Below, one piece after another: positions 11,228 through 55,768 of a stretch of 64,000 nt of DNA. This DNA comes from a bacterium (lineage in GTDB: Bacteria; UBA8248), in contig OZ244799.1 of NCBI GenBank assembly GCA_965219955.1, positions 416,001-480,000 on the forward strand, read 5' to 3'. Positions within the stretch are counted from its first letter, which is position 1. Each line of letters opens with the position of its first letter. Both the position numbers and the translations under genes were made by a program. Below the pieces are notes generated by a model. That model had not been told where the DNA came from. It was given only the letters and a program-made list of their open reading frames with translations, and made no database searches.

Positions 11228-11432
11228 GGGGTTGTTGGAAAGGCCCTATCCGACCTTCGAGATTGTTCGCCGTAGGGACAGGCCTCCGTGCCTGTCCGAG
11301 GTTTCTTACGGGCATGGACATTCCCGGTAGGGGCGGGCACGGAGGCCCGCCCCTACGGTTGAAATTTTCATCCGCGGCGAGCGCGGCCATAGTTCGCCAT
11401 CCCTCGTTCATCGGGGCTTTTTCAACAGCCCC
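11228..11432. mobile_element. MITE-like composite with a GTAG REP pair
   Basis: GGGGTTGTTGGAAA...TTTTTCAACAGCCCC enclosing GTAGGGACAGGCCTCCGTGCCTGTCC and GTAGGGGCGGGCACGGAGGCCCGCCCCTAC. Confidence 0.65.
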
Positions 11433-11492
11433 CTCAAGGGGGGAGTGAAGTCTCCTCCCTCCCCGATCGGCTACAACCCCCTTACGCCCCGC

Positions 11493-12293
11493 CTATTTTT
11501 TCTTTCTCGGGTTTTTGTTGATGAACGCTTCGCGGACGTAGCGGACGACCGACCAGATATCCTCGTCTTTCAGCAGGTGGCCGTAGGACTGCATGAAATT
11601 GAACTTCTTTATCTCGCTGGCGTCGATGCGGCCGAGTTTGATGACCCAGAAGAGAAACCCGTCGCTGAAGCGCGCCATCTGTTCTCGCAGGTGATAGTTC
11701 ATCGGCGGCGGCTGGATGTGGCTGATGAACGGCTTTCCGGGGTCCTGATCCTCCACCGGGCGAATTCCGTTCCCGACCCCCTTTCCGCCGTGGCACTGGG
11801 AGCAGGCGTCGGTGAAGATTTCCCGGCTCTGCTCGTCTTTCGGCTGGTCCCCTTTGCTGAAGCCGCGCACCCACCTGATGAGTTTCCGGATCTGCTCGTC
11901 TTCGAGCGACTCGGCGAACGAGGGCATGGCGGTGGGGACGCCGTTCTTCACCTTGTGGCCCCTGGTCCGGTTTTTGAGCACGTTCATCTTGCCGAACTTC
12001 ACGACGGCGAACATGTAGTCGTCCGTCATGCGCTTCATGTAGGGGCTGATGAACACCTGGGGCCTCGGCCTCACCGTCCGCCAGATCGGCCCCTTGCCGT
12101 CGCCCTTGACCCCGTGGCAGGAGAAGCAGATCTCCCCGTAGATTTTCTTGCCCCGCCGGTAGTCCCCGCCGTTTTGCTGTGCCGTCTCGGGTTTGGGAGG
12201 GATTCTCCTGGCCGCATGAGAGGCGGCGGGTGTGATGAGGCTCAACGAGCAAGCCACTACGATCCATAGGCCGGTTTTCTGCCACAACTTCAT
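11493..12293 (-). CDS. Periplasmic diheme cytochrome c
   Basis: Signal peptide (ASHA-A); CFSCH and CSQCH in two similar domains, each with a downstream Met (AMPSF, FMQSY). Confidence 0.85.
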   Translation of the reverse strand: MKLWQKTGLWIVVACSLSLITPAASHAARRIPPKPETAQQNGGDYRRGKKIYGEICFSCHGVKGDGKGPIWRTVRPRPQVFISPYMKRMTDDYMFAVVKFGKMNVLKNRTRGHKVKNGVPTAMPSFAESLEDEQIRKLIRWVRGFSKGDQPKDEQSREIFTDACSQCHGGKGVGNGIRPVEDQDPGKPFISHIQPPPMNYHLREQMARFSDGFLFWVIKLGRIDASEIKKFNFMQSYGHLLKDEDIWSVVRYVREAFINKNPRKKK

Positions 12294-12393
12294 TTCCTGT
12301 CCTCTTCCAGCGGTCTCGTCGATACGGGTTGGAGGCTGAGTCTCAAGCGCGGGCGCGCCGGTTGCTCACCCGATCATGCCGGTCAAGCCACCA

Positions 12394-13413
12394 TTATTTC
12401 TTCGCGCAAGGGTTTTTGGCGCACGGATTCCTGGCGGCACACGGGTTTTTCGGTGCGCAAGGGTTGTTCGCACAAGGATTTTTGGCGGCGCATGGGTTTT
12501 GGGGAGCGCAAGGGTTTTGTGCAGCGCACGGATTGCTGGACGCGCCCGGGCTTTGGGGTGCGCGCGGGTTCGTGGCGGCGCATGGATTCGCCGGTGCGCC
12601 GGGGTTGTTCGGCGCACACGGATTCGCAGGTTCGCTTAAGTTTCTCGCAACGGGAGAATCCCTGCCGGGATTCTTCGGCTCGCCGGGGTCGCCTCCGCCG
12701 GGGTTTGCGCCACCGGCCGCGGGCTGCGCCGTCTTCATGAACGCCTTGCGCTTCGCCTCCCACTCGAGCATGCGCTCGTACCGCGCGGGTGTGAGGGAGA
12801 CCACGTAGGCCTCCAAATCCTTGTATTCCTGCGAATAGGGGTTCATGGGCGGGTTGCCGATGAACGTCGTGGCGCACCAGTCGTTGAACTGCCCGACGCT
12901 CGCCACCTGTCCCGCAGGGCTCAGGCGCGGGAAGTGGTCCGCCGCTCCGATGAGGGTCGGGACGGGAACCGGATGCCTCGCGCCCTTTACGTCCACGACT
13001 GTGCCCCGGATGGTGCGGCCCCGGGGGTGGCAGCTGACGCAGCCGATGCCCCGGAAGACTTTCCTGCCCCGGGCGACGGCGTCCTTCACGCTGGCGTCGC
13101 GCTTCGGGGTGGAGAGGGGAGTCGGATGCGTGATGGCCGGCTTCCTGCTCGCCGCCCGGGCCTCGCCGCCCGCAGGGGGAGTAAGCTGGTTGTCTCCGCC
13201 GGGATTTTTCACTGTTCTTGCACAAGCATTCTTCGCCGCGCAGGGGTTTTGGGGCGCACAGGGGTTATTCGCTGCACAGGGGTTGCCCGGTGCGCAGGGA
13301 TTTTGGGCTGCGCACGGGTTCTTGGGTGGGTCCGCCGCATGGACGGGAAGGGCGGCCCATACCGAGACGTTCAGGAGCGCGCCGAGGAGGAGGAGCCTCG
13401 ATTTTCTCAGCAT
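12394..13413 (-). CDS. Secreted monoheme cytochrome c (SoxA/TsdA-like core) flanked by NPC Cys-repeat arrays
   Basis: AGGAGG RBS, signal peptide (VHA-A), 5 NPC plus 1 NAC before the core and 10 NPC after it; core CVSCH...FPR...NDWC...EYKDLEAYVVSL. Confidence 0.8.
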   Translation of the reverse strand: MLRKSRLLLLGALLNVSVWAALPVHAADPPKNPCAAQNPCAPGNPCAANNPCAPQNPCAAKNACARTVKNPGGDNQLTPPAGGEARAASRKPAITHPTPLSTPKRDASVKDAVARGRKVFRGIGCVSCHPRGRTIRGTVVDVKGARHPVPVPTLIGAADHFPRLSPAGQVASVGQFNDWCATTFIGNPPMNPYSQEYKDLEAYVVSLTPARYERMLEWEAKRKAFMKTAQPAAGGANPGGGDPGEPKNPGRDSPVARNLSEPANPCAPNNPGAPANPCAATNPRAPQSPGASSNPCAAQNPCAPQNPCAAKNPCANNPCAPKNPCAARNPCAKNPCAKK

Positions 13414-13507
13414 GGATCCTCCTCCCTTTGGGGAGTGGTTTCGATGCGGCAACGGGAAGGGGAATGCCGTCATGGATTCTGCCTCGTGAGGCGGCGGCGC
13501 CGGACGC

Positions 13508-13516
13508 ATTATACCA
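13508..13516 (-). promoter_or_regulatory. Extended -10 promoter upstream of the NPC cytochrome
   Basis: Minus strand TGGTATAAT, about 95 bp before the ATG. Confidence 0.45.
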
Positions 13517-13527
13517 GAGTCGGGAGT

Positions 13528-13950
13528 CTAGGGCAGCAGCCGCATCCCCAGAACGGCGACGAACAGGGCGATAAAGACGGCCAGGAAACCGCAGTAGGAG
13601 TGAATCTGCCTCAAATCATTGTTCTTGAGGTTTTTCTTGAGCCTTCGGCCCAGCCAGGCCGTCGTCCAGAACAGGACGAGCGCCAGGGTGGCGAAATAGC
13701 TGTGCGCCGTCTCGTAGAGGGGGCCTTCCAGGGCGAAGCGCATCCCGCCCAGACCGAGAGCGTAGCCCACGGAGAAAAGCGCAATAAACCACCGCCCGAG
13801 CCGCATGTGCAGGCGGGCGACGCGCGCCGTCTCGGGCCCGGCGCCCCCTGTGCGCGAGCGCCTCACGCGCAGGCCGTTCGCAAGCACAATCAGGCCCAGC
13901 GAGAGGGTGGCGATCTGAAAAGCCGGATGAATGTACGCCCCAAAATTCAT
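13528..13950 (-). CDS. Four-TM membrane protein with four His (DUF4079 / cytochrome b-like)
   Basis: His8, His48, His83 and His117 each sit at the start of a hydrophobic helix. Confidence 0.65.
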   Translation of the reverse strand: MNFGAYIHPAFQIATLSLGLIVLANGLRVRRSRTGGAGPETARVARLHMRLGRWFIALFSVGYALGLGGMRFALEGPLYETAHSYFATLALVLFWTTAWLGRRLKKNLKNNDLRQIHSYCGFLAVFIALFVAVLGMRLLP

Positions 13951-14101
13951 GCGCCTCTGCTCCGGGGAGGTTCGATAAGCCGCGTTTCCATCTCCACCCC
14001 TGTTTACCTTGCCCGATGGGCAGACGTAAAGCTAAAATGTCTGAGTTGCGATTCTAACCAGCGATCCACGAGTGCAAGAAATTTTGAGTTAAAGGAAAGT
14101 A

Positions 14102-15004
14102 ATGACGGGTTCTTGGGAAGTACCTCAACCCCATGCCGTTTTCGAGGTGCGTGCGCCCGATTGCGCGACAGTATTCGTCCGCAGACACGGCAACCCGGCG
14201 GGGCCGCGCATGATCCTCAGCCACGGCAACGGCCTTTGCATGGACGCCTATTATCCGTTCTGGTCGCATTTCACCGATCGTTTCGACGTCTTCGTGCACG
14301 ATATCCGCAACCACGGCTGGAACCCGGCCAGCGACCTCCGCGTGCATAACGTGCCCACGTTCGTCGATGACGGCGCTCTCATCGTCCGCGAAATCGACCG
14401 GCGCTTCGGCGAAAAGCCCAGGATCGGCGTGTTTCATTCGCTTTCGGGCATCGTTGCGCTTCATCAGGCCATGCGTGGCGGGAGCGGGTTTTCGGCGCTG
14501 GTTCTGTTCGACCCGCCCATCTGTGCGCCCGGCGGTTTTCCGCAGGACATGGAGGGGGTGTGCAGCAGGCTGAGCGTCAGCACCGCAAAGCGCCGCGACA
14601 GGTTCGAGAGCCCCGAAGCGTTCGCAGAGCGTCTCTCCCGGAGCCCTGCCTTCAATCGCATGGCCCCCGGCGTGATCGAGCTGTTCGCCCGGACGACGCT
14701 TCGCCGCGCCGCCGACGGAGGGGGTTACGAACTTGCCTGTCCGCGCGATTACGAGGCTCAGGGCTTCGGGTTTCTTTTCATCTGGTCGATGACGGTGGAC
14801 TGGGACAGCGTCGACTGTCCCATGAAATTCATCGGGGGCGACCCGACGGTTCCGCACACGTACGTGCCGAGCATGGATTTAAGGGAACTCGTATTCGTCG
14901 ATTACGACTTCATACCGGAGGCGACTCACTTTCTCCAGTTCGAGGAGCCGGAGAGGTGCGCCGCCATGACGCTTGAATTTCTGGAAGGGCGCGGAGTGAT
15001 TTGA
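14102..15004 (+). CDS. Alpha/beta hydrolase
   Basis: HGNG, DIRNHG, FHSLSG nucleophile elbow, THFLQFE. Confidence 0.85.
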   Translation: MTGSWEVPQPHAVFEVRAPDCATVFVRRHGNPAGPRMILSHGNGLCMDAYYPFWSHFTDRFDVFVHDIRNHGWNPASDLRVHNVPTFVDDGALIVREIDRRFGEKPRIGVFHSLSGIVALHQAMRGGSGFSALVLFDPPICAPGGFPQDMEGVCSRLSVSTAKRRDRFESPEAFAERLSRSPAFNRMAPGVIELFARTTLRRAADGGGYELACPRDYEAQGFGFLFIWSMTVDWDSVDCPMKFIGGDPTVPHTYVPSMDLRELVFVDYDFIPEATHFLQFEEPERCAAMTLEFLEGRGVI

Positions 15005-15030
15005 GGGTGCGTGGACTTAGGGGATTTCCC

Positions 15031-15060
15031 TTGTCCGCAACAGAGGCGCGAGGCTATAGT
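15031..15060 (+). promoter_or_regulatory. Sigma70-like promoter
   Basis: TTGTCC-N18-TATAGT ahead of a ~165-nt leader. Confidence 0.45.
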
Positions 15061-15224
15061 AGCCGAAACGCGACCCCGGCCCATCGGCTGTAAAATCGGG
15101 AGTTTTACAAAGTGACCTGCTCCGCTCCCCAAGTAGCGGACTTGAGAATCAGGGACGTTGTTTGTGCGGCAATTTCGGCATGAGCCGGTTGGGTAGTGTT
15201 TGAAAAGCATTGCAAGGAGGAATC

Positions 15225-15866
15225 ATGTCCGTCATCGTGTATGTCCTGACCAACCCGGCGATGCCCGGCCTCGTCAAGATCGGAAAGACGACGCGGAGTG
15301 ATCTCGGGGCGAGAATGAAAGAATTGTATAAGACGGGCGTTCCCCTTCCGTTCGATTGCGCCATCGCGGTCGAGGTCGAGAATAATGGGGATGAACTGGA
15401 GAAAGCCCTTCATACCGCATTTGAGCCGCAAAGACTGAACCGTTCAAGAGAGTTCTTCCAGGTAGAGAGTTCCCAGGTGGAGGTTTTACTTAGTATCTGG
15501 CCGGACGCACGAGACGTTACGCCGGAGATTGAGCGTGACTTGGAGAAAGATTTGTCTGCCGAAGAAAAAGAGGATGTGAGGAAATTCAAAAAACGCAGAC
15601 CGAATCTGAATTTCAGGGTAATGGGAATACCGGATGGCTCGGAACTGGTGTCCACGAATGGCGCACGCGAGAAAGCGGTCGTTGTTGGAGAAAAAAAGGT
15701 GTTGTTTCGCGGCGAGGAAATGTTTCTGACGACGGCAACCAATATAGTCTTTGAGTTCGATTATTCGCTTAATCCCTGTCCTCGTTGGACTTTCGAAGGC
15801 AGAAATCTCTCGGATATTTACTCGGAAGTGTATGGGAGCAGCGACGGTGTGGTTGATACGAACTAA
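15225..15866 (+). CDS. GIY-YIG-related T5orf172-domain protein
   Basis: AGGAGG RBS; VYVLTNPAMPGLVKIGKT...TGVPLPF...E..LH..F...R...REFF; AT-richer codons than the flanking genes. Confidence 0.88.
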   Translation: MSVIVYVLTNPAMPGLVKIGKTTRSDLGARMKELYKTGVPLPFDCAIAVEVENNGDELEKALHTAFEPQRLNRSREFFQVESSQVEVLLSIWPDARDVTPEIERDLEKDLSAEEKEDVRKFKKRRPNLNFRVMGIPDGSELVSTNGAREKAVVVGEKKVLFRGEEMFLTTATNIVFEFDYSLNPCPRWTFEGRNLSDIYSEVYGSSDGVVDTN

Positions 15867-15949
15867 TCCGAACAGACGTTGCGATTATCCGTTTTTGGAA
15901 AGCGAAAAAGCATGGTGATATATCTCCTGAATTTCTGTGTGAGGATACC

Positions 15950-16744
15950 ATGAACCTAGAAGACCTGCGCGCCATCGCGCGCGGCGGCAGAGTGTTCGAT
16001 CTGGGCGTCGAGCTCTTTCCCGGCATGCCCCACGTGCCGCTCCACGGCCCGTTCGGGTATTCCATGATCAGGGAGCACGGCGACTTCATGTACGCGGGCG
16101 GGGCGTGTTCGGCGGTGGATACGTTCTTCTGCACCGGCCACACGGGCACGCACATCGACGCCCTGGGCCACGTCGCGCGGGACATGAAGCTCCACGGCGG
16201 CCTGGACGTGGCCGAGCACCAGAGCAAGACCGGGGGCCTGAAAGCCCACGGTATCGAGAGCGTGGCGCCCGTGGTGCGGCGCGGGGTGATGATCGACATG
16301 GCGGCATACCTGAAAAAAGACGTGCTGGAGGCGGGCCGGCCCGTCACGAAAGAAGAACTGGGAGCCGCCGCCGCAGCCCAGGGCGTTAGAATCGAAGAAG
16401 GGGACGTCGTCCTCGTGCGCACCGGCCACATGCGCCACTGGCCGGGCCGGGACTACTATCACCAGAAAGGCGGCGTGCCCGGGATCGACCTCGAAGCCGC
16501 CAGGTGGCTCTCGGATCAAGGCATCTTCATGGCGGGGAGCGACAACTTCGCCGTCGAGGTGCTGCCCGCCCCCTCCCTGCCGGTGCACTGCCACATGCTG
16601 GTGGACAGCGGAATACACCTGCTCGAAGTCGCCGTGCTGGAGGAGTTGAGCAAGGCCCGCGCGCATGAGTTTCTCTTCGTCTGTCTGCCGCTCAAGGTGC
16701 GCGGCGGAACGGGTTCGCCCGTCCGGCCCGTGGCCATCCTGTAG
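15950..16744 (+). CDS. Cyclase family metal hydrolase (kynurenine formamidase-like)
   Basis: HTGTHIDA, GDVVLVRTG, GSD and GGTGSPVRPVA. Confidence 0.9.
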   Translation: MNLEDLRAIARGGRVFDLGVELFPGMPHVPLHGPFGYSMIREHGDFMYAGGACSAVDTFFCTGHTGTHIDALGHVARDMKLHGGLDVAEHQSKTGGLKAHGIESVAPVVRRGVMIDMAAYLKKDVLEAGRPVTKEELGAAAAAQGVRIEEGDVVLVRTGHMRHWPGRDYYHQKGGVPGIDLEAARWLSDQGIFMAGSDNFAVEVLPAPSLPVHCHMLVDSGIHLLEVAVLEELSKARAHEFLFVCLPLKVRGGTGSPVRPVAIL

Positions 16745-28413: not shown

Positions 28414-29073
28414 CTAGGCGTCGTCCCCTCGCGGCCATACAGCGAGCGCCAGCCGCCAGCCGCAGAACGCGCCCATGAACTGGGCGATGATGAAGGCGAT
28501 CGCGTCGAACGGCTGGATGCCCGAGAACGTGTTGGTATAGACCCGTGCGATGGTGACCGCCGGGTTGGCGAAGCTGGTCGAGGCCGTGAACCAGAGGGCC
28601 GACATGATGTAGAGCCCCACCATCGCCGGGATGAGGGCCGCGTTCGTGCGCAGCCCGCCCAGGATGACGAAGATCAGCCCCGCCGTCGCGATTACCTCCG
28701 CCGACCACTGGCCGATGCCCGCCCGCTGCTTCACCGAGACCTGGGCGATGTCCAGGTCGAACATCAAGTGCGCGGCGAGCACGCCCAGGATGCCCGCGAG
28801 GATTTGCGTGGCGACGTAGGGTGCGGCCTCGCGCTGTTCCATATCCCCGTTCAAGGCGAAGACCATGGTGACCGCGGGGTTGAAGTGCGCGCCCGAGACC
28901 GGTCCGAGCAGGGTGATCATGACGAAAAGGATCGCGCCGATCGCCAGTGAATGCGGCAGGAGCGCTGCGCCCGCCTGCCCGTTCGCCAGGGCTTCGCCCA
29001 TGATGCCCGAGCCCGCGATGGCGGCGAGCAGAAACGCGGTTCCGACTGCTTCGGCAAGGAGTTTGCGGCCCAT
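28414..29073 (-). CDS. MIP-family aquaglyceroporin (arsenite channel, AqpS-like)
   Basis: SGAHFNPAVT and SFANPAVT; 12 bp downstream of arsC. Confidence 0.88.
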   Translation of the reverse strand: MGRKLLAEAVGTAFLLAAIAGSGIMGEALANGQAGAALLPHSLAIGAILFVMITLLGPVSGAHFNPAVTMVFALNGDMEQREAAPYVATQILAGILGVLAAHLMFDLDIAQVSVKQRAGIGQWSAEVIATAGLIFVILGGLRTNAALIPAMVGLYIMSALWFTASTSFANPAVTIARVYTNTFSGIQPFDAIAFIIAQFMGAFCGWRLALAVWPRGDDA

Positions 29074-29085
29074 CGGTTCACCTCC

Positions 29086-29562
29086 TCATATACGGCTGAT
29101 GGCGTCCAGGCGCGCTTTGAGGTCTGCGCGGTCCATGTCTTCGAAGGGCAGAGCCAGAAAGGCGTTTATCCGCGTGCTCAGGCGGTGGTAAGCGACCCGG
29201 AACGCCCGGTCTATTTCATCCTCGGGCGCAGCGGCGGGGTCGTCCACCCCCCAGTGGGTGCTCAGCGGCGCGCCGGGCCAGACGGGGCACGTCTCGCCCG
29301 CCGCCGAATCGCAGACGGTGATGACCAGGTCCATCTTCGGCGCGCCTGCGGCGGCGAACTCATCCCAGCTCTTGGAGCGGTAGCCCGCCGTCGGCAGGCC
29401 CAGGCGCTCGAGCAGGCGAACCGCGCCCGGATTCACCCGCCCGGCGGGATTCGAGCCCGCCGAATAGGCTTGCACCCTCCCCGCGCCGTCCCGGTTGAGT
29501 ACCGCTTCGGCGAGTATCGAGCGCGCCGAGTTGCCCGTGCAAAGAACGAGAATGTTGCGCAT
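29086..29562 (-). CDS. arsC: Arsenate reductase, LMW-PTP type
   Basis: LCTGNSARS, SKSWDEF, TVCD...CPVWPG and HWG..DPA. Confidence 0.92.
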   Translation of the reverse strand: MRNILVLCTGNSARSILAEAVLNRDGAGRVQAYSAGSNPAGRVNPGAVRLLERLGLPTAGYRSKSWDEFAAAGAPKMDLVITVCDSAAGETCPVWPGAPLSTHWGVDDPAAAPEDEIDRAFRVAYHRLSTRINAFLALPFEDMDRADLKARLDAISRI

Positions 29563-30908: not shown

Positions 30909-31280
30909 CTACGCGTCCCCATACCGTTGCGGGGATTCCTCCTCCGCCTTTCGCCCCTCCAGGTATTTGCCGTACGCATCGTGCGTCGTCTCGTCGCAGA
31001 GGTCGGGGCCGCGCTTGTAGGCCGCCCTCGATATCAGGTGTGCGGCGACGGGAGCGGTCAGGAAGAGGAAGAAAATGGCCAGAAGCGCCTGCGTCGTGAC
31101 GGTGGTGCTCTGAAAGATGAGGCTGGCGCCCAGGAGGATGCCGCCCATGCCGAAGGTCGTCGCCTTGGTGGCCGCGTGCATGCGGCAGTAGACGTCTGGC
31201 AGGCGGATGAGGCCGATGCTGGCGACCAGCATGAAGAACGAGCCCCCCAGCAGCAGGATGGCGGCGAGTGCGTCACTCAA
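30909..31280 (-). CDS. mrpG: Mrp Na+/H+ antiporter subunit G
   Basis: RLPDVYCRMHAATK and LTAPVAAH; TTG start. Confidence 0.92.
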   Translation of the reverse strand: MSDALAAILLLGGSFFMLVASIGLIRLPDVYCRMHAATKATTFGMGGILLGASLIFQSTTVTTQALLAIFFLFLTAPVAAHLISRAAYKRGPDLCDETTHDAYGKYLEGRKAEEESPQRYGDA

Positions 31281-31542
31281 TGATCTTCCCCCTCTCGAGG
31301 AACTTCGCATACACCGTCGTGCCCACGAAGCTTAAGATCGCCAGGGCGAGCACGGCGATGATGAACAGCTTGTTGTGCGTCTGGATGGCGAACAGCGCGA
31401 TGACGCCGAGCACGTTCGTGGCGAGGGTGTCCGCCGCCACCACGCGGTCCGACGTCGTGGGCCCCTTCGCGAGGCGGATGAACGCGAGGAGCACCGAGGC
31501 GCCCATCATGACGAGGCTTATCTGAACGGCGAGCTCTATCAT
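31273..31542 (-). CDS. mrpF: Mrp antiporter subunit F
   Basis: GPT..DRVVA.D and SFVGT...AKF. Confidence 0.92.
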   Translation of the reverse strand: MIELAVQISLVMMGASVLLAFIRLAKGPTTSDRVVAADTLATNVLGVIALFAIQTHNKLFIIAVLALAILSFVGTTVYAKFLERGKIIE

Positions 31543-32012
31543 TCCACGGCTCCCACGATGGGTTCTTCCAGCCCCTCCCGGATGCCCTCGGCCACCTCGT
31601 CGGGGTGGTCGATGTCCAGCGTGTGGACGAAGATCGTCTCGTCGTCGTCCGACACGTCGATGCTCAGCGTGCCGGGCGTGAGCGTGATGGAATTCGCCAG
31701 CATCGTCACGCCCAGCGGCGTCTTGCAGACCGTCTTGTAGGGGATGATGCCCGGGCGGATCGACAGCCTGGGGGCGAGGACGATCTTCAGCACCTGGACG
31801 TTCGCGACCAGCAGCTCCCAGGTGAAGCTCCTCAAGTACCTGAAATAGCTGCCGATGCGGAAGAACGCCCTGTCCTGGTAGTAGGATTTCTTCAAGAACC
31901 GGATGATGAGGAGCGCCATGATCAGCCCGACGAAGAAGTGCCCCGGCGTCGCGCTGCCGTGCAGGAATATCCAGATGGTGGCGATGGTGAATGCGAGCGT
32001 GGCGAGCGGCAT
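31539..32012 (-). CDS. mrpE: Mrp antiporter subunit E
   Basis: ANSITLTPGT and VH.LD. Confidence 0.92.
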   Translation of the reverse strand: MPLATLAFTIATIWIFLHGSATPGHFFVGLIMALLIIRFLKKSYYQDRAFFRIGSYFRYLRSFTWELLVANVQVLKIVLAPRLSIRPGIIPYKTVCKTPLGVTMLANSITLTPGTLSIDVSDDDETIFVHTLDIDHPDEVAEGIREGLEEPIVGAVE

Positions 32013-32022
32013 CAGGCGTCTC

Positions 32023-33498
32023 CTATCCCAAATCCCGCATGGCGGCGATGTAGAGTTCAGGGTTCGTGATCTGGGCGGCCACGAGCTGCGCCCACTCGAA
32101 GAGCCAGTAGGCGCCGAGGCCGAAGACGACCGCGAAGGCCGAGAGGAAGGCGACCGAGCCGTAGATGCCTGCGCCCGCCACGCCGACCTCGCCGCCGCCC
32201 GTCCCCCAGGCGTAGCGCTGGTACGTCGTGAAATTATAATAAAGCGATATGACGCCGAATCCCAGGGCGATCCCCGTCGCGAGCACGGCACCCTGGGAGA
32301 ATCCCGCCTGGAGCACGAAGAGCTTGGCGAAAAAGCCCGTGAACGGCGGAAAGCCCGCCAGTGAGAGGAACCCCACCAGCATGAGCAGGCTCGCGAAGGG
32401 CGCCTTGCCCATCATGCCGCCCATTTCTTCGAGATCGACCGTGCCGGTGAGCTTCTGGTTCAGCCCCGCGCCGAGCAGCATCGCGCTCTTGAGATAGGCG
32501 TGGCCGACGATGTAGAAGACCGCCGCCGCGAGGCCGGCTTGGGATAACAGGGCGACGCCGAAGGCGATGTAGCCCAGCTGGTTGATGGTGCTGTAGGCCA
32601 GGATGCGCTTGATGCTCGTCTGGGGCAGTGTGCCGAGCGCGCCCATGGCGATGGTCAGGAGGCACAGGAGGATCAGCCCGGGCTGCAGTATCAGGAACGC
32701 CGCCGGGAAGATGAGCGTGGCGCAGCGGATGATCGAGTAGATGCCCACCTTGACGAGCACGCCCGCGAGGATCGCGCTGATGGGGGTGGGCGATATCGAG
32801 TGCGCGGAGGGCAGCCACAGGTGCATCGGGAATATCGCCGCCTTCACGCTGAAGACGAAGACGAAGACGAGGGCCGTCACCACCATCAGGGGCGTGGGTC
32901 CCAGGAGCTTTATCTTTACGGCGAGGTCGGCCATGTTCACCGTGCCCACCTGGGCGTAGAGCAGCGAGACGCCGAGCAGGAAGAACGCCGACGCGATCAG
33001 GTTCAGGCAGGTGTACTTGAAGGCCATCTCGAGCTGGTCGAGGTTGTAGTAGAAGCCCAGCAGCGCGTAGGTGGACATCAGCATGACTTCGAAGAACACG
33101 AACAGGTTGAACAGGTCGCCCGTGATGAAGCAGCCCTGCATCCCCATCAGGAGGAAGTGGAGCAGGGGGTGAAAGGCCTCTTTCCGCTGCTCGTCCGTGA
33201 GATAGCTCCTCGCGAAGACGGCGCACGCCCCCACGATGGAGGAGGAGAGGCAGAGCAGCGTGGCGGCGAGCCTGTCCGCCGCCAGGACGATGGCGTAGGG
33301 GAAAGGCCACAGGCCCATCCGGTGGACGAAGATCGTCCCGTCCGCCGTCGCATGCAGGAGCACGCCTGCGAAGATCAGGTTCGCCAGCAGCGCGAGCAGG
33401 CTCACCGACTCCTGCAGCGCGCGGTTCTTTCTGACGAGGAACAGGAACGTGCCCACCGCCAGCGGCAAGACGACGAACATGGGGAAGAAGGCGTTCAT
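32023..33498 (-). CDS. mrpD: Mrp antiporter subunit D
   Basis: TGDLFNLFVFFEVM, KAAIFP.HLWLP, KVG.Y and LAG.PP..GF..K. Confidence 0.94.
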   Translation of the reverse strand: MNAFFPMFVVLPLAVGTFLFLVRKNRALQESVSLLALLANLIFAGVLLHATADGTIFVHRMGLWPFPYAIVLAADRLAATLLCLSSSIVGACAVFARSYLTDEQRKEAFHPLLHFLLMGMQGCFITGDLFNLFVFFEVMLMSTYALLGFYYNLDQLEMAFKYTCLNLIASAFFLLGVSLLYAQVGTVNMADLAVKIKLLGPTPLMVVTALVFVFVFSVKAAIFPMHLWLPSAHSISPTPISAILAGVLVKVGIYSIIRCATLIFPAAFLILQPGLILLCLLTIAMGALGTLPQTSIKRILAYSTINQLGYIAFGVALLSQAGLAAAVFYIVGHAYLKSAMLLGAGLNQKLTGTVDLEEMGGMMGKAPFASLLMLVGFLSLAGFPPFTGFFAKLFVLQAGFSQGAVLATGIALGFGVISLYYNFTTYQRYAWGTGGGEVGVAGAGIYGSVAFLSAFAVVFGLGAYWLFEWAQLVAAQITNPELYIAAMRDLG

Positions 33499-33845
33499 CC
33501 CTTGAGCCTCCTGATCTCGTCGATGTCGTCGGTGCCGAACTTGCGGTAGGTGAAGAACGCGAGCACGAGCAGAAACGCCGTTACGGCCAGGCTGATGACG
33601 ATGGCGGTCAGCACCATGGCCTGGGGCAGGGGGTCCACGTAGGCGAACGGGTCCAGCGGCCCGCCCGTCTTGGGGACGATGGGCGCCTTTCCGTCCCCCA
33701 CCCAGCCGGAGGCGACGATCATCAGGTTCGCGGCGTGGCTCAGCACCGCCATGCCGAGCACGACCTGAATGATCCTGCGCTGCATGATGAGGTAGGAAGC
33801 CACCGTCACCAGCACGCCGATGATCATCGCCAGTATCCAGACCAC
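33495..33845 (-). CDS. mrpC: Mrp antiporter subunit C
   Basis: SHAANL and DPLPQAMVLTAIVI. Confidence 0.94.
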   Translation of the reverse strand: MVWILAMIIGVLVTVASYLIMQRRIIQVVLGMAVLSHAANLMIVASGWVGDGKAPIVPKTGGPLDPFAYVDPLPQAMVLTAIVISLAVTAFLLVLAFFTYRKFGTDDIDEIRRLKG

Positions 33846-33997
33846 GTTATTGTCTCCTGCGCGCTTTTACGTCGGGAACCATATATTCGAGTTGACGACT
33901 TCCTGTTAAGTTCATGATTCCCTTTCCAAAACGACTCCCCAAGATTGGGTTGTTTTCACTCCCCCCTTGAGGGTTTTTGCTACCCCAAGTAGAGAGG

Positions 33998-34169
33998 AAA
34001 TTCACTCCCCCCTTGAGGGGGAGTCGATGAGCTAAGGGCGTAAGCCCGCAAGCGAATCGGTGGGGGGTATAATTCGGAATGGCAAGAAAACGCATTTTAC
34101 CCCCCACCGAGTCAGCCTTCGCACAAAACGCTCGGCTTCCTCGACTCCCCCTCAAGGGGGGAGTGATTT
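33998..34169. repeat. Family B element (reverse orientation) inside the mrpB-mrpC spacer
   Basis: Closely matches 40070-40234, including the flank CCAAGTAGAGAGGAAA. Confidence 0.88.
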
Positions 34170-34234
34170 CAGCACTCCCTTTTCGAATCCAGACCACGTT
34201 AATACCTCCTACTGCTATCCAGCTTCCTGGTTTT

Positions 34235-34463
34235 CCTCATCCTGAGTAGCCGCCGAAGGCGGCGTATCGAAGGATGCCCACTTGCCCGCCGGGAGACGTC
34301 CCCATCCTTCGATACGGCGCATGCGCGCCTACTCAGGATGAGGTGTTGTTGCCGCCTGCGCGGTTTGTAGGTCGGTTTGTAGGTCGGACATATATGTCCG
34401 ACTTATATGCGACCCTGCTTTTTTTCGCCTCTCAGTCATGGGCAGCATATATGCGGCCCCTAC
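34235..34463. repeat. Family D inverted pair followed by a GTAG REP pair
   Basis: CCTCATCCTGAGTAG...CTACTCAGGATGAGG, then GTAGGTCGGACATATATGTCCGAC...GCGGCCCCTAC. Confidence 0.8.
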
Positions 34464-34537
34464 AAAAGATCATGTCCCCTCCGGCGCGGTTGCGGGCTTC
34501 TCCCTTACCATGCCGCCCGCTCCGCAGCCTTTATTCT

Positions 34538-34950
<413 letters not shown>

Positions 34951-34963
<13 letters not shown>

Positions 34964-37296
34964 TTCGTCTCTCCCACGAGCCGCAAGAGGGCGTAGACGG
35001 CGATGCCCGCGATGACGAGCACGGTGATCTCGCCCAGCGTGTCATACCCCCGGTAATCGACGATGATGGCGTTCACCACGTTCTTGAAGCCCGCCACCGG
35101 CTTGCTCGTGCGCATGAAGTAATCGGCGATCGTGCGGAACTGGTGCGTGTTCATGGCGGCGGCCATGACGAGCGTCGTGCAGACGCCGAGCCCTATCGCG
35201 ATGCCCCAGTCGCGCAGCTTCTTCGCCGCCGAGACCCGCACGGGCTTGAGTTCGGGCAGGTAGTAGAACACCAGCAGGAAGAGCACGACGGAGGCCGATT
35301 CGACCATGATCTGGGTGAGCGCCAGATCGGGCGCCTTCAGGAGCAGGAACAGCCCCGCGATGCCGTAGCCCATCGTGCCGAGGGCGAGGATGGCCGGGAT
35401 TCTCCGCTTGAACAGCGCGGTGGCGAGGGCCGCGCCCATGATCATGAGCGCGATGACGACGAGCAGGAACGACGCGCCCGCGAAGCCTTTGGGAAAGACG
35501 TTCGCGCCCCAGTCCAACCGCCAGGCGAGGTAGAGTACGGCGGCGGTGGGCAGGACGAACATCCAGCGCATGTATCTTCTCAGGTTCCCGTCCTGGATGA
35601 GCATGAGGATCTCCCAGGTGCCCTCGCGCAGCCAGTTCACGAAGCCGTCATAGATTCTGTCGGGCGCGGGGGCCTTGCCCCAGGCGGTGGCGACGGCGTC
35701 GAGCACTTTCTTGACATGCGCGAAGCCGAAATAAAGCGCCAGGCCCAGCGCCATCGTGATGACCGACATGATGAGCGGGGTGTTTATTCCGTGCCAGAGG
35801 CCGAGGTGAAGCTCCACCTTCGCCCCGCCGCCCAGCGTGGCTTGTGCCGCGGGCGCGACGATGGCGTTCTCGATCAGGCCCGGCGCGAGACCGAACGCGA
35901 GCGCGAGAAGAACGAGTATCGCGGGCGCGGCCAGCATACCCATCGGCGGGTCGTGGGGATGCTTGGGCGCATCGCCTTCCGCCGCCTGCCAGTAGGGCTC
36001 GCTTAAGAATCTCAGGTGATAGAGCGCCGTGAACACGCCTGCGAATACGGTGATATACGGCCAGAACCAGCTCCAGGATCCGGGGCCGCCGGGGTGGAGG
36101 CTCACCTCGTAGAGCATCTCCTTGGTGATGAATCCCCCCATGGGCGGTATGCCGATGAGGCTCAGCGCCGCTATGACGGCGAGTACGTGCGTCCTGGGCA
36201 TGAGTTTCTTCAGGTTGCCGAGCAGCCTCACGTCGCGCGTGCCCGCCTCGTGGTCGATGATGCCCACCGTCATGAACATCGCCGCCTTGGCCGCCGCGTG
36301 GTTGTAGAGGTGGAGCGTCGCGCCGATGATCGCCCCCTTGCCGCCGTAGCCCAGGAAGGTGACGATGAGGCCCAACTGGCTGATGGTGCCATACGCCAGT
36401 ATTGCTTTTAAGTCATAAGCCCTGAGCGATAACAAACCCCCCGCTATCATCGTCGTCATGCCGAAGCCCGTGACCACGTAGCCCCAGGCGGGGTGCGCGC
36501 CCAGGATGGGGTAGAAGCGCGAGAGGAGGTAGATGCCCGCCTTCACCATGGTGGCCGAGTGCAGGAACGCGCTGATGGGCGTGGGCGCTTCCATGGCGTT
36601 CGGCAGCCAGATGTGGAAGGGCCACTGCGCGCTCTTGGTGGCCGCGCCCAGGATGATCAAGAGGAATACGCCGAGCGATACCTGGCTGGCAATGTCCGGC
36701 ATGAGAACGAGTTGGGATAGCCGCCACTCGCCGCCTAAATCGCCCAGGAGCAGAAATCCCCCCAGCATGGCGAGGCCGCCGCTGCCCGTGATGAGGATGG
36801 CCTTGGTCGCGCCGTAGTTCGAGGCGTCCCTGTCCGACCAGAAGCCGATGAGGAAGAACGAGGTGATGCTCGTGAGTTCCCAGAAGATGAACAGCGATAT
36901 CAGGTGATCGGAGAACACCACGCCCAGCATCGAGCCCATGAACGCGATGAGAAAGCCGTAGTAGCGGCCGAGCGCCTCGTGTTCGTGCAGGTACCAGTGG
37001 GAGTAGAGGACGATGAGCGCGCCCATGCCCGCCACGAGGAGCCCCCACATGAGGCTCAGGCCGTCCACCATGAACGAGATTTCCACGTTCGCGGCGGGGA
37101 CCCAGGCGATGGCGCGCGTGAAGGTCTGCCGCCCGCCCGCCGCCCATTCGCCGTAGAGGCCGATGAGCGCCCAGATGCTCACGATGGGCGCGACCATGGC
37201 GAACCACGCGGCGTGTTTGCGGAAACGCTCCGCGAACCAGGGGATGATGAGGGCGGCTGCGAACGGGAAGAACACGATGATGAAGGTGTTGTCCAA
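34951..37296 (-). CDS. mrpA: Mrp antiporter subunit A
   Basis: [47 protein letters not shown] and [15 protein letters not shown]. Probable TTG start; the longer ORF extension is repeat-derived. Confidence 0.93.
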
Positions 37297-37415
37297 AACG
37301 AGCGCCCTTCGGGAGTGGTTTTCCGTGAACCGAATACCATGCCTTGCGTTTTGCGCTTCGGTGATAATGGCATAATCTCTTGCATCGGACAACGAAGCGG
37401 CAACCTCCTTCGTTG

Positions 37416-37539
37416 AAAGGCAACCCCCCCTACCCCCCCTTGTCAGGGGGGTATAAAAAGGCGATGCGCCCCCGACGGGCTGAGGGGGTTTTGTTTTTTC
37501 TTGCCCCCCTGACAAGGGGGGGTAGGGGGGGTTGCCTTT
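37416..37539. repeat. Family C inverted doublet (AAAGGCAACCCCCCCTACCCCCCCTTGTCAGGGGG)
   Basis: Long inverted arms; reverse copy at 50662-50792 and half copies near 30527 and 40266. Confidence 0.85.
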
Positions 37540-37564
37540 ATCCCCTGAGCAGGGGAACATTTTC

Positions 37565-37674
37565 AACAACCCCCAAGACACGGAACAACAAGGAGGCTTC
37601 CATCTTGAGCGAGACGACCTACCACCTCTACGCCCTGTGCCAGGGTTCGCGCGCCGGTCGTTATCGACACGGGC
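37565..37674 (+). pseudogene. Diverged, internally deleted duplicate of the leader, RBS and 5' end of the MBL gene at 39226
   Basis: About 90 bp near-identical to 39185-39275, then CCGGTCGTTATCGACACGGGC matching 39373-39393. Confidence 0.85.
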
Positions 37675-37841
37675 AACACCCAAATACGTCCTTTTGAATG
37701 GACCTGCTCCGGCAAACTCCTGGCCATTATGATCAGTCAACTTATTTCAAAGCCGAAACACGAATTGAACATCTCTTGTATTGCTTTTACAATTCCCCTG
37801 GTGCCATCATTTTCTGTGTAAAGCGGAATGGAGGGAGCGAA

Positions 37842-55263: not shown

Positions 55264-55372
55264 TCTTTCTGCGCCGCTTTGGATGATCTCTTGATTGTTT
55301 TATGAGATATGGTGTGGCCTGCGGAGCGCGCGCCTCTGCGCGAAGAGTCCCCGCCGGAGGAGGTTTTCGGGA

Positions 55373-55768
55373 ATGAACAGGGTGTTGGCGGCGGGGCTTT
55401 TTCTCATTGCGGGATTCGGGTTGCTCGTGACCCTGACGAAAAGACCCGAGCCCCCGAGGCATCCGCAGGTGCCCGTGACCGAGGATATGGCCCGAATCAA
55501 CCAGGGGAAGAAGCTGTTCTCGCGCAACTGCATGCGCTGCCACGGGCCCGAAGCGAAGGGCTCGCGAATCGGCCCGCCGCTGGTGCACAAGATTTACGAG
55601 CCCTCCCATCACGGGGACGCCGCCTTCTTCATGGCCGTCTCGCGCGGGGTGAAGAGCCACCACTGGAAGTTCGGCGACATGCAGCCCGTGCCGGGCGTGA
55701 AACCCGAAGAGGTGGCTTTGATCGTCGGGTACGTGCGCTGGCTGCAGAGAAAGGCCGGAATCTTTTAG
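55373..55768 (+). CDS. Membrane-anchored or periplasmic monoheme cytochrome c
   Basis: CMRCHG, GPPLVHKIYEPSHHGD and HHWKFGDM. Confidence 0.88.
   Translation: MNRVLAAGLFLIAGFGLLVTLTKRPEPPRHPQVPVTEDMARINQGKKLFSRNCMRCHGPEAKGSRIGPPLVHKIYEPSHHGDAAFFMAVSRGVKSHHWKFGDMQPVPGVKPEEVALIVGYVRWLQRKAGIF

Follow-up and report, generated by a model that had tools for sequence, protein, structure and literature searches.

Three co-oriented genes for a cysteine-armed cytochrome, a diheme cytochrome and a membrane protein

We examined a 64,000-nucleotide stretch of bacterial DNA (contig OZ244799.1, positions 416,001 to 480,000 of the forward strand), here called the window, in which three genes of the same orientation occupy positions 11493-13950 of the minus strand. 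Gene 1 encodes a four-helix membrane protein, gene 2 an exported cytochrome whose single heme domain lies between two cysteine-repeat arms, and gene 3 an exported diheme cytochrome. A reading of the letters alone (hereafter, the original prediction) had described three co-oriented genes, a membrane protein with four transmembrane segments and His8/48/83/117, a cytochrome with 16 repeat cysteines, and a diheme cytochrome with Met ligand candidates, and had noted an extended -10 between genes 1 and 2 and the lack of sox genes nearby; all of this was borne out, the start codon of the cytochrome excepted. Taking the evidence jointly, we are confident that the locus encodes an exported monoheme cytochrome of the SoxA/TsdA family, divergent in sequence (with CxxCH and the equivalent of TsdA Cys96, and no thiosulfate-binding Arg) and bearing variable (NPCAxx)n arms with 16 thiols, together with a near-constant diheme partner and a DUF4079/b561-like protein whose four invariant histidines are placed for two bis-His hemes. 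The trio is, in short, an Arg-less, cysteine-armed SoxA-family cytochrome with a diheme partner and a b561-like neighbor; its component families are known, and the cysteine-armed variant is undescribed. The features of the locus are as follows.

13528..13950, minus strand: DUF4079/cytochrome b561-like four-helix membrane protein, 140 amino acids (gene 1; Pfam, ESM Atlas, invariant His)
13508..13516, minus strand: extended -10-like element TGnTATAAT (TGGTATAAT), read from the sequence; it overlaps the ATG of a spurious long open reading frame (ORF)
13469..13495, minus strand: 27-nucleotide leader block with the palindrome GCCTC-AC-GAGGC, invariant in the alignment of 9/9 close loci
12394..13413, minus strand: exported monoheme c-type cytochrome, 339 amino acids, with signal peptide, N-side NPCA arm, SoxA/TsdA-like core and C-side NPCA arm (gene 2; ORF, GGAGG, alignments, 34 homologous clusters)
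13219..13320, minus strand: N-side cysteine arm, five NPCA units and one NACA (Cys 34, 40, 46, 52, 58 and 64; motif scan, Tandem Repeats Finder)
12730..13131, minus strand: SoxA/TsdA-superfamily cytochrome c core, residues 95-228 (profile search, PF21342 in relatives, Foldseek, ESM Atlas)
13027..13041, minus strand: heme-binding motif CVSCH, residues 125-129, conserved without exception in the cores (24/24) and in a wider alignment (22/22)
12874..12876, minus strand: Cys180 (in NDWC), candidate distal heme ligand and catalytic thiolate, invariant in the same 24/24 and 22/22; in the register of TsdA Cys96
12406..12624, minus strand: C-side cysteine arm, ten NPCA units (motif scan, Tandem Repeats Finder)
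11493..12293, minus strand: exported diheme class-I cytochrome c, 266 amino acids, with CFSCH at residues 56-60 and CSQCH at 164-168 (gene 3; Pfam, PDB match, alignment)

The longer ORF (12394-13509) would start the cytochrome at 13509; we rejected this start, whose ATG sits inside the TGGTATAAT element. Since the ATG at 13413 is closely preceded by a GGAGG Shine-Dalgarno sequence and followed by a signal peptide, and orthologues start there, position 13413 is almost certainly the true start.

A divergent SoxA/TsdA-superfamily domain forms the cytochrome core

Close homologues of the cytochrome formed 34 protein clusters, the named ones belonging to Nitrospinota/Nitrospinae. With a profile built from 24 cores as the query, 189 of 1.84 billion representative proteins matched at an expectation value (E) of ≤1e-3 and 25 at E≤1e-10. 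PF21342 was present in 34/34 scanned relatives, i.e., profile matches covering most of the domain, and in 32 of them it scored above the curated cut-off. One relative, P0039 (E=1e-20 to the profile; hhalign probability of 98% to the window core), matched TsdA 4wq7_A at E=1.2e-9, and an alignment chained from the window core through P0039 to 4wq7_A placed Cys180 on TsdA Cys96. TsdA heme 1 is ligated by His53 and Cys96, and Cys96 is described as essential for activity (PMC6879331). The wider alignment in which both CxxCH and the candidate ligand Cys are invariant has a mean column identity of 26%.

Structure-based comparison pointed the same way. For an AlphaFold2 model of the core (predicted local distance difference test score [pLDDT] of 64), Foldseek ranks 1-7 were all TsdA (probability 0.89-0.97, E ~0.1, template modeling [TM] score 0.47), with SoxA 2c1d_A at rank 26, and an ESM Atlas feature search with the core returned PF21342 clusters first (score 0.93). 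Direct Pfam and NCBIfam matches of the protein, although weak, named this same family. A PDB sequence search with the single cytochrome gave matches to the CxxCH region only (best E=0.22) and retrieved neither SoxA nor TsdA. Because the profile relatives carry PF21342 and Foldseek and the Atlas concur, we place the core in the SoxA/TsdA superfamily as a divergent member, in line with the SoxA/TsdA match claimed in the original prediction, whose NDWC cysteine proved to be both conserved and in register with TsdA Cys96.

The cytochrome has 19 cysteines and a single CxxCH: 15 cysteines belong to NPCA units, one to NACA, two to CxxCH and one to NDWC. Scanning all six frames of the window, we found clusters of two or more NPC motifs in this ORF only, and Tandem Repeats Finder reported 18-, 36- and 51-nucleotide arrays at 12404-12635 and 13238-13326. 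A C-side arm with 2-20 Cys units was found in all 22 cytochrome ORFs tabulated (21 loci and the window), the cysteine being kept in every repeat unit while neighboring residues vary.

A diheme partner and a b561-like membrane protein

The gene 3 product matched Pfam Cytochrome_CBB3 in two stretches (E=1.6e-21, 76.8 bits), and its best PDB match was 6h5l_B (E=2.9e-9). Both heme motifs (C56/C59/H60 and C164/C167/H168) as well as M123 and M234 were invariant in 17/17 aligned sequences. The protein has no equivalog assignment, the best NCBIfam model being ccoP with 54.7 bits vs. a cut-off of 179.95. It is a probable electron relay for the NPC-repeat cytochrome. A complex prediction of the two cytochromes with three hemes scored 0.37, compared with 0.00 for the best of three controls; at least 82% of contacts were common to the runs, and the diheme partner had a pLDDT of at least 84. 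This lends the pairing weak support. The pass mark was reached by 116/157 solved complexes and 2/215 mismatched pairs, and at scores ≤0.60 it was reached by only 18/157 solved complexes and by both passing mismatches.

The gene 1 product contains exactly four histidines (8, 48, 83 and 117), each at the start of one of its four hydrophobic segments, and all four were invariant in 11/11 aligned orthologues. It matched DUF4079 (PF13301) over residues 6-139 of 140 (E=3e-14, 53.9 bits vs. a cut-off of 31.4) and also exceeded the cut-off of the eukaryotic Pfam family Cytochrom_B561 (PF03188; E=1.2e-5, 26 bits vs. 23), while its top ESM Atlas clusters were DUF4079 (score 0.95-0.96); a PDB sequence search gave only chance-level light-harvesting proteins (E ~0.4). 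Lys and Arg residues number seven in loop 28-52 and six in loop 101-116, and there are none in the N terminus and loop 74-82. From this bias and the positive-inside rule, H8 and H83 would lie on the periplasmic side and H48 and H117 on the cytoplasmic side, and the protein is predicted to bind two bis-His hemes, one with each pair. Pairing of histidines between helices i and i+2 is as in cytochrome b561, and the b561-like layout first proposed for gene 1 agrees with its Pfam matches and with histidines paired on opposite faces. Such a heme layout makes a role as quinol or transmembrane wire plausible. The DUF4079 family itself is uncharacterized, and a literature search gave one paper that mentions it.

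A conserved leader precedes the cytochrome gene

We aligned the leader between the membrane and cytochrome genes in the window and eight close loci. The TG of the extended -10 was invariant, the hexamer was exactly TATAAT in six of the nine loci with one mismatch in the other three, and conservation of the leader (13469-13516) exceeded that of much coding sequence. The 27-nucleotide block with its palindrome may be the operator of some regulator. Rfam returned nothing at E≤1 for 11300-14200, and folding of the leader RNA was no better than that of shuffles (z=-0.09). A two-hexamer promoter scan gave no minus-strand sites, leaving the extended -10 unflagged, and terminator-like sites were at shuffle level. 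On account of the conserved TGnTATAAT-like element and the invariant block, the cytochrome and diheme genes probably form a pair with a regulated promoter of their own.

Conservation across genomes and a separate arm carrier

A genome scan gave 23 loci, for seven of which a phylum was stated (six Nitrospinota/Nitrospinae/Nitrospinaceae and one Tectomicrobia, all metagenome-assembled genomes). By tblastn, the trio was complete and in the same order in 19/23 loci. The diheme gene stood beside the cytochrome gene in 21/23 loci, Tectomicrobia included, and was undetected at E≤1e-5 in L021 and L023; the membrane gene was found in 21/23 as well, and L020 ends at a contig edge. The cytochrome-diheme pairing is the robust association of the trio.

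In 11/23 loci, consisting of the more divergent ones and the Tectomicrobia locus, a separate gene for an exported arm protein lies just upstream of the cytochrome gene and, where the membrane gene is present, between the two.

L010:7086-8141, plus strand; also in L012-L020 and L022 (e.g., L022:7845-8459): separate arm protein (locus maps)

This protein is built of a signal peptide, NPCA repeats, a beta domain of ~72 amino acids and further NPCA repeats. The beta domain belongs to no Pfam family, and a relative of it matched CusF_Ec in Pfam only at E=0.015. The cytochrome had an N-side arm in 11/11 tabulated rows without the arm gene and in 0/10 rows with it (L003, L007 and L014 are not properly represented in this table); cytochromes beside an arm gene have a signal peptide of their own and no N-side arm. 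The signal peptide of the window cytochrome is identical to that of the L010 arm protein at 15/26 positions and to that of the L010 cytochrome at 3/26. Since the N-side arm tracks the missing arm gene and the signal peptide matches that of the carrier, the window cytochrome looks like a fusion that retains the carrier's leader and arm.

A gene with an FGE-sulfatase domain (PF03781) was seen downstream of the diheme gene in 9/23 loci (L013:10754-11731 and L022:10079-10867, both on the plus strand, and seven more). These loci nearly coincide with those of the arm protein, and the window has no such gene. We considered the product as an arm-modifying enzyme and set it aside, as the gene is missing from the window; presumably, the NPCA repeat is also no match for the CxPxR target, and the FGE cysteine pair is missing from the FGE-sulfatase protein.

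NPCA repeats are a widespread periplasmic module

Of 8000 proteins scored in a search with the L010 arm protein, at least 913 had E≤1e-3, with E-values inflated by the repeat. The best 120 of these 913 included 34 proteins with PF21342, 12 of the window's own family, nine with cytochrome P460 and six with YHS, and many were small-domain proteins. We rechecked the Pfam domains of nine NPCA proteins. Among the 34 bearing PF21342 are proteins of named Gammaproteobacteria, annotated only as "c-type cytochrome" or "hypothetical protein"; the core of P0181 is remote from that of the window (hhalign E=0.007, 21% identity), and in P0181, P0185 and P0229 the ligand Cys is kept and the Arg at the position four residues before it (Cys-4) is missing. 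Elsewhere, ANPCA/AKNPCA repeats flank cytochrome P460 (P0209 and P0212), YHS (P0228) and small beta domains (P0237, P0217 and P0226), and in P0212 they interrupt the P460 domain. From these architectures, the NPCA repeat behaves as a portable module in several phyla. NPCA repeats are a widespread, undescribed periplasmic module, and a literature search found the repeat strings in no paper. The NPC repeats of the trio's cytochrome are thus not peculiar to it.

A 56-amino-acid SoxA-like remnant, found as a match to P0181, lies in an unannotated region of Cupriavidus sp. KK10 plasmid p1 (L024:7058-7228, plus strand), between RND-efflux-like and thioredoxin-like/CcdA-like ORFs whose functions were read from translations only. 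It keeps the region of the ligand Cys and has no CxxCH. A plasmid search with P0060 gave no match. P0091 matched a c-type cytochrome of Ralstonia, set among YeeE/TauE/sulfurtransferase genes, and a hypothetical protein of Methylocystis encoded next to a cytochrome c peroxidase. None of these plasmid searches was informative for the window's subfamily.

A tentative mechanism and the alternatives to it

The reading that we prefer, which we regard as possible rather than probable, is that the cytochrome performs heme-thiolate, two-electron sulfur chemistry on cysteine arms, by analogy with SoxAX acting on SoxY. The heme-thiolate center would convert arm thiols to disulfide, persulfide or polysulfide, or the reverse, in parallel with the conjugation of sulfur to the SoxY-arm Cys by SoxAX. 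The arms serving as substrates would be the cytochrome's own and, in relatives, also those of the small beta-domain "arm carrier." Electrons would pass to or from the diheme cytochrome, and the b-type membrane protein may link it to the membrane or cytoplasmic electron pool, the weakest step. The travel of arms with the domain supports this scheme: 34 plus 12 of the best 120 NPCA proteins are SoxA-like, a gammaproteobacterial subfamily included.

A number of findings weigh against heme-thiolate chemistry on the arms, and we give them here together with the other explanations. That the arms are substrates of the heme center is something we infer by analogy. The direct match of the core to PF21342 fell under the cut-off (13.5 bits vs. 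27, E=0.074), as did that of the cytochrome to the NCBIfam SoxA model TIGR04484 (14.4 bits vs. 110, E=0.017), and a PDB search with the 24-sequence profile gave matches to the CxxCH region only (best E=0.0039), retrieving neither SoxA nor TsdA. The core model is too poor, at a pLDDT of 64, for the heme-facing residue to be read. Met190 is also invariant inside the window's cytochrome family, with Leu there in wider relatives, so His/Met ligation is possible. On the membrane side, the AlphaFold2 model of gene 1 (pLDDT 68, predicted TM score 0.47) had a best Foldseek match of E=0.88, and no fused or longer DUF4079-cytochrome forms were found, in itself weak evidence. The kinship expected in the original prediction from profile and structure searches thus appears in the Foldseek ranking, with TsdA in the top seven places, while the direct Pfam and NCBIfam matches fall short and the membrane model has no match.

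The residues that hold thiosulfate in TsdA are also lost. As described by Grabarczyk et al. (PMC4423706), these are Arg109, Arg119 and Ser127, with Cys123 as the ligand in precursor numbering; Arg119 is bonded to thiosulfate and invariant in TsdA and SoxA, Ser127 is invariant in TsdA, and the position of Arg109 holds Arg, Lys or Ser. In 4wq7_A they are R82, R92 and S100 (an offset of 27), and the chained alignment places on them Pro for Arg109, Phe for Arg119 (Cys-4) and Phe for Ser127 (Cys+4) in the window. Across the window's cytochrome family, the Cys-4 position is Phe or Met, and Arg was found there in 0/34 relatives. By these residues, the window cytochrome is not TsdA or SoxA proper.

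We give very little credence, then, to a genuine thiosulfate dehydrogenase or tetrathionate reductase (TsdA with a TsdB-like diheme partner) or a SoxAX-type enzyme. Superfamily membership and the conserved candidate ligand Cys speak for it, as does the adjoining diheme gene, Marichromatium TsdA being reported as fused to a diheme electron acceptor (PMC6879331); moreover, non-Nitrospinia Nitrospinota are described as encoding sulfide and thiosulfate oxidation genes (PMC10839748). Set against these are the three substitutions, the presence of one heme domain, the NCBIfam SoxA score far under its cut-off, the lack of sox families (soxX, soxY, soxZ and soxB included) among the 56 window ORFs scanned, and the lack of TsdBA among the gene 3 PDB matches at E≤0.01. 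Because the Arg is lost, there is one heme domain and the window holds no Sox families, thiosulfate and tetrathionate assays would likely be negative, and the thiosulfate/tetrathionate chemistry first suggested for the trio is judged unlikely. The loss of the thiosulfate-binding Arg makes it probable that the Arg-less clade has a different substrate.

A further set of points concerns whether the trio is a unit. In the window, the promoter-like conserved element separates the membrane gene from the cytochrome gene. L008 has, between the DUF4079 and cytochrome genes, an outer-membrane beta-barrel gene on the opposite strand (PF13505; 7011-7862, minus strand), so that the two cannot be one transcript there, and ORFs of the same cluster fill this gap in L011 and L015. 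The Tectomicrobia locus (L022) has no membrane gene. Flanking clusters 3-8 recur in 15-18 of 24 maps, i.e., the Nitrospinota loci are widely syntenic, and the link of the membrane gene is consequently not independent of relatedness. Of the co-occurrence expected for the trio, the recurrence of the genes elsewhere held up, with the membrane gene linked only inside a lineage that shows general synteny.

Another alternative is plain periplasmic electron transfer, in which the cytochromes would shuttle electrons for respiration, the repeats would be inert linkers or disulfide envelope tethers, and the DUF4079 gene would be unrelated. General synteny accounts for the membrane-gene link, the cytochrome genes have a promoter-like element of their own, repeat number varies freely among orthologues as in a spacer, and the same repeats flank unrelated domains. 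We nevertheless consider a plain shuttle improbable. The SoxA-type Cys is invariant while the family diverges to ~25% identity, and every repeat keeps its Cys despite varying neighbors, which a pure spacer would not need. The His/Cys hemes of SoxAX and TsdA are, moreover, described as of very low potential (PMC6879331), and they are catalytic, not shuttling.

The partners of the NPCA arms and the wider PF21342 relatives add two more points against sulfur chemistry: the arms also occur on P460, YHS and small beta domains without known S-S chemistry, and in 17/34 PF21342 relatives (P0042-P0089 range) a segment with 14-30% Met lies between the signal peptide and the heme domain. As methionine cannot carry sulfane sulfur, such segments favor a metal role. 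In this alternative, soft-metal handling, the arms would be a periplasmic thiolate sponge or relay, most plausibly for Cu(I), else for Ag, Hg or Cd, and the cytochromes would change the redox state of the metal or keep the thiols reduced, exchanging electrons with the membrane. We find this, the main rival of the sulfur reading, doubtful, if worth serious consideration. The Met-rich periplasmic proteins CopA, PcoC and CusA are reported to bind Cu (PMC10092412). The clade as a whole bears Met-rich or Cys-rich low-complexity extensions, both of them soft-metal ligands. In place of the cationic Arg stands Met or Phe, and relatives have extra Met around the ligand Cys (QMNNMC-type). NPCA arms flank YHS (six of the best 120) and a small beta domain named CusF by one source, for which Pfam CusF_Ec reaches only the E of 0.015 given above, and the Cupriavidus remnant lies, in our own reading of translations, beside RND-efflux-like, thioredoxin-like and CcdA-like ORFs.

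Other observations tell against a metal role. The 56 window ORFs scanned included no cop, cus, sil or mer genes, and we know of no precedent for a His/Cys heme acting on a metal. Among the sequences of the small beta domain that we saw, no set of Met/His residues is conserved, and the Cupriavidus ORF is a fragment without CxxCH. Identity between the Met-rich relatives and the window core is just 25-32%, and these relatives may act differently. For SoxAX itself copper has been proposed, yet the structural account in PMC4423706 reports no copper and no plausible site in any SoxA-family structure.

The P460 proteins also bear on nitrogen-oxide chemistry, in which the heme would bind NO or hydroxylamine and the arm thiols would trap reactive nitrogen by heme-assisted S-nitrosation. 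This would explain the arms shared with cytochrome P460 in nine of the best 120 proteins, and NO-binding His/Cys hemes occur in anammox bacteria. The hosts belong to a phylum described as rich in nitrogen-cycle organisms (PMC10839748). Yet no nitrogen-oxide genes were found near the trio among the window ORFs scanned, and the YHS and small-beta-domain partners are left unexplained; we hold this reading to be most improbable.

A broader reading, somewhat unlikely in our estimate, takes NPCA as a multi-cysteine arm module and the trio as a minimal dedicated machine for loading, unloading or keeping reduced its cargo (sulfane sulfur or a Cu(I)-type metal) on dozens of arm thiols by a SoxA-like heme-thiolate catalyst, wired through the diheme cytochrome and possibly the b-type membrane protein. 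Arms on P460, YHS and beta domains would then belong to a new thiol buffering or carrier system across phyla.

Other features of the window

A gene for a small monoheme class-I cytochrome c (157 amino acids; 55295-55768, plus strand) lies ~42 kb from the trio, beside MatE and AMP-binding genes. A T5orf172/MUG113-domain gene (15210-15866, plus strand) stands between alpha/beta-hydrolase and cyclase genes in the window's lowest-GC stretch (0.558 for 14001-16000 vs. ~0.62-0.67 around) and may be a small insertion. An MIP-channel gene adjoins a low-molecular-weight phosphatase (ArsC-like) gene at 28414-29562 (minus strand), near a multisubunit Mrp-type cation/proton antiporter cluster at 30909-37740 (minus strand); the pair and the Mrp cluster appear unrelated to the trio.

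Significance

SoxA-family heme-thiolate cytochromes have so far been known only as thiosulfate-converting enzymes, and here is a large clade in which the catalytic Cys is kept, the thiosulfate-binding Arg is lost and Cys-rich or Met-rich extensions are present. The NPCA arm module, with at least 913 database proteins and several periplasmic redox domains, is a more interesting object than the trio: its cargo, once known, would tell how bacteria maintain and exploit numerous free thiols in an oxidizing periplasm. Nitrospinota and marine Gammaproteobacteria could also prove to handle sulfur or copper by a new route, and DUF4079 would gain its first functional context.

Comparison with known systems

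The membrane protein resembles the DUF4079 and b561 families in scoring above both Pfam cut-offs and in its four histidines, with helices 1 and 3 and helices 2 and 4 paired on opposite faces. Compared with the two-heme carriers of the b561 type, it has only four helices and no solved relative by sequence or fold. The gene 3 product resembles CcoP/c4-like diheme cytochromes such as Kuenenia 6H5L chain B, having likewise two Cytochrome_CBB3-type domains, CxxCH motifs and Met candidates. For the core model of gene 2, the best structural match is the N-terminal catalytic domain of TsdA from Allochromatium vinosum (PDB 4WQ7 and related entries), which shares with it the order CxxCH, FP motif, ligand Cys and LxAY helix. 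TsdA has two heme domains, whereas the window cytochrome has one (one CxxCH in 339 amino acids), and, unlike TsdA, it carries two cysteine-repeat arms on its core.

The cysteine of SoxY sits on a flexible arm. SoxAX/SoxYZ, as described in PMC4423706 and PMC6879331, resembles the system studied here in combining a cytochrome with a Cys-ligated heme, a second cytochrome and a carrier Cys; SoxA-family enzymes are reported there to conjugate thiosulfate to another thiolate via the heme Cys, the thiolate being a SoxYZ Cys in the case of SoxAX. The order of arm-bearing small protein, Cys-heme cytochrome and second cytochrome in 11/23 related loci is a further likeness. Unlike in Sox, no SoxX, SoxY, SoxZ or SoxB homologues were found among the window ORFs scanned, and the invariant SoxA Arg is missing; the arms hold 2-20 or more Cys in NPCA units and are fused to the catalyst, whereas SoxY has a single C-terminal Cys.

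A parallel in architecture is offered by the uncharacterized NPCA-flanked "c-type cytochrome" proteins P0181, P0185, P0196 and P0229 (of Motiliproteus coralliicola, Zobellella aerophila, Oceanisphaera and Halomonas sp. YLGW01). A C-side NPCA arm is present in P0181 and P0185, and P0229, as seen, is without one. These relatives are built like the window cytochrome, with a signal peptide, an NPCA arm and a PF21342 monoheme domain that keeps the ligand Cys and has no Arg at Cys-4.

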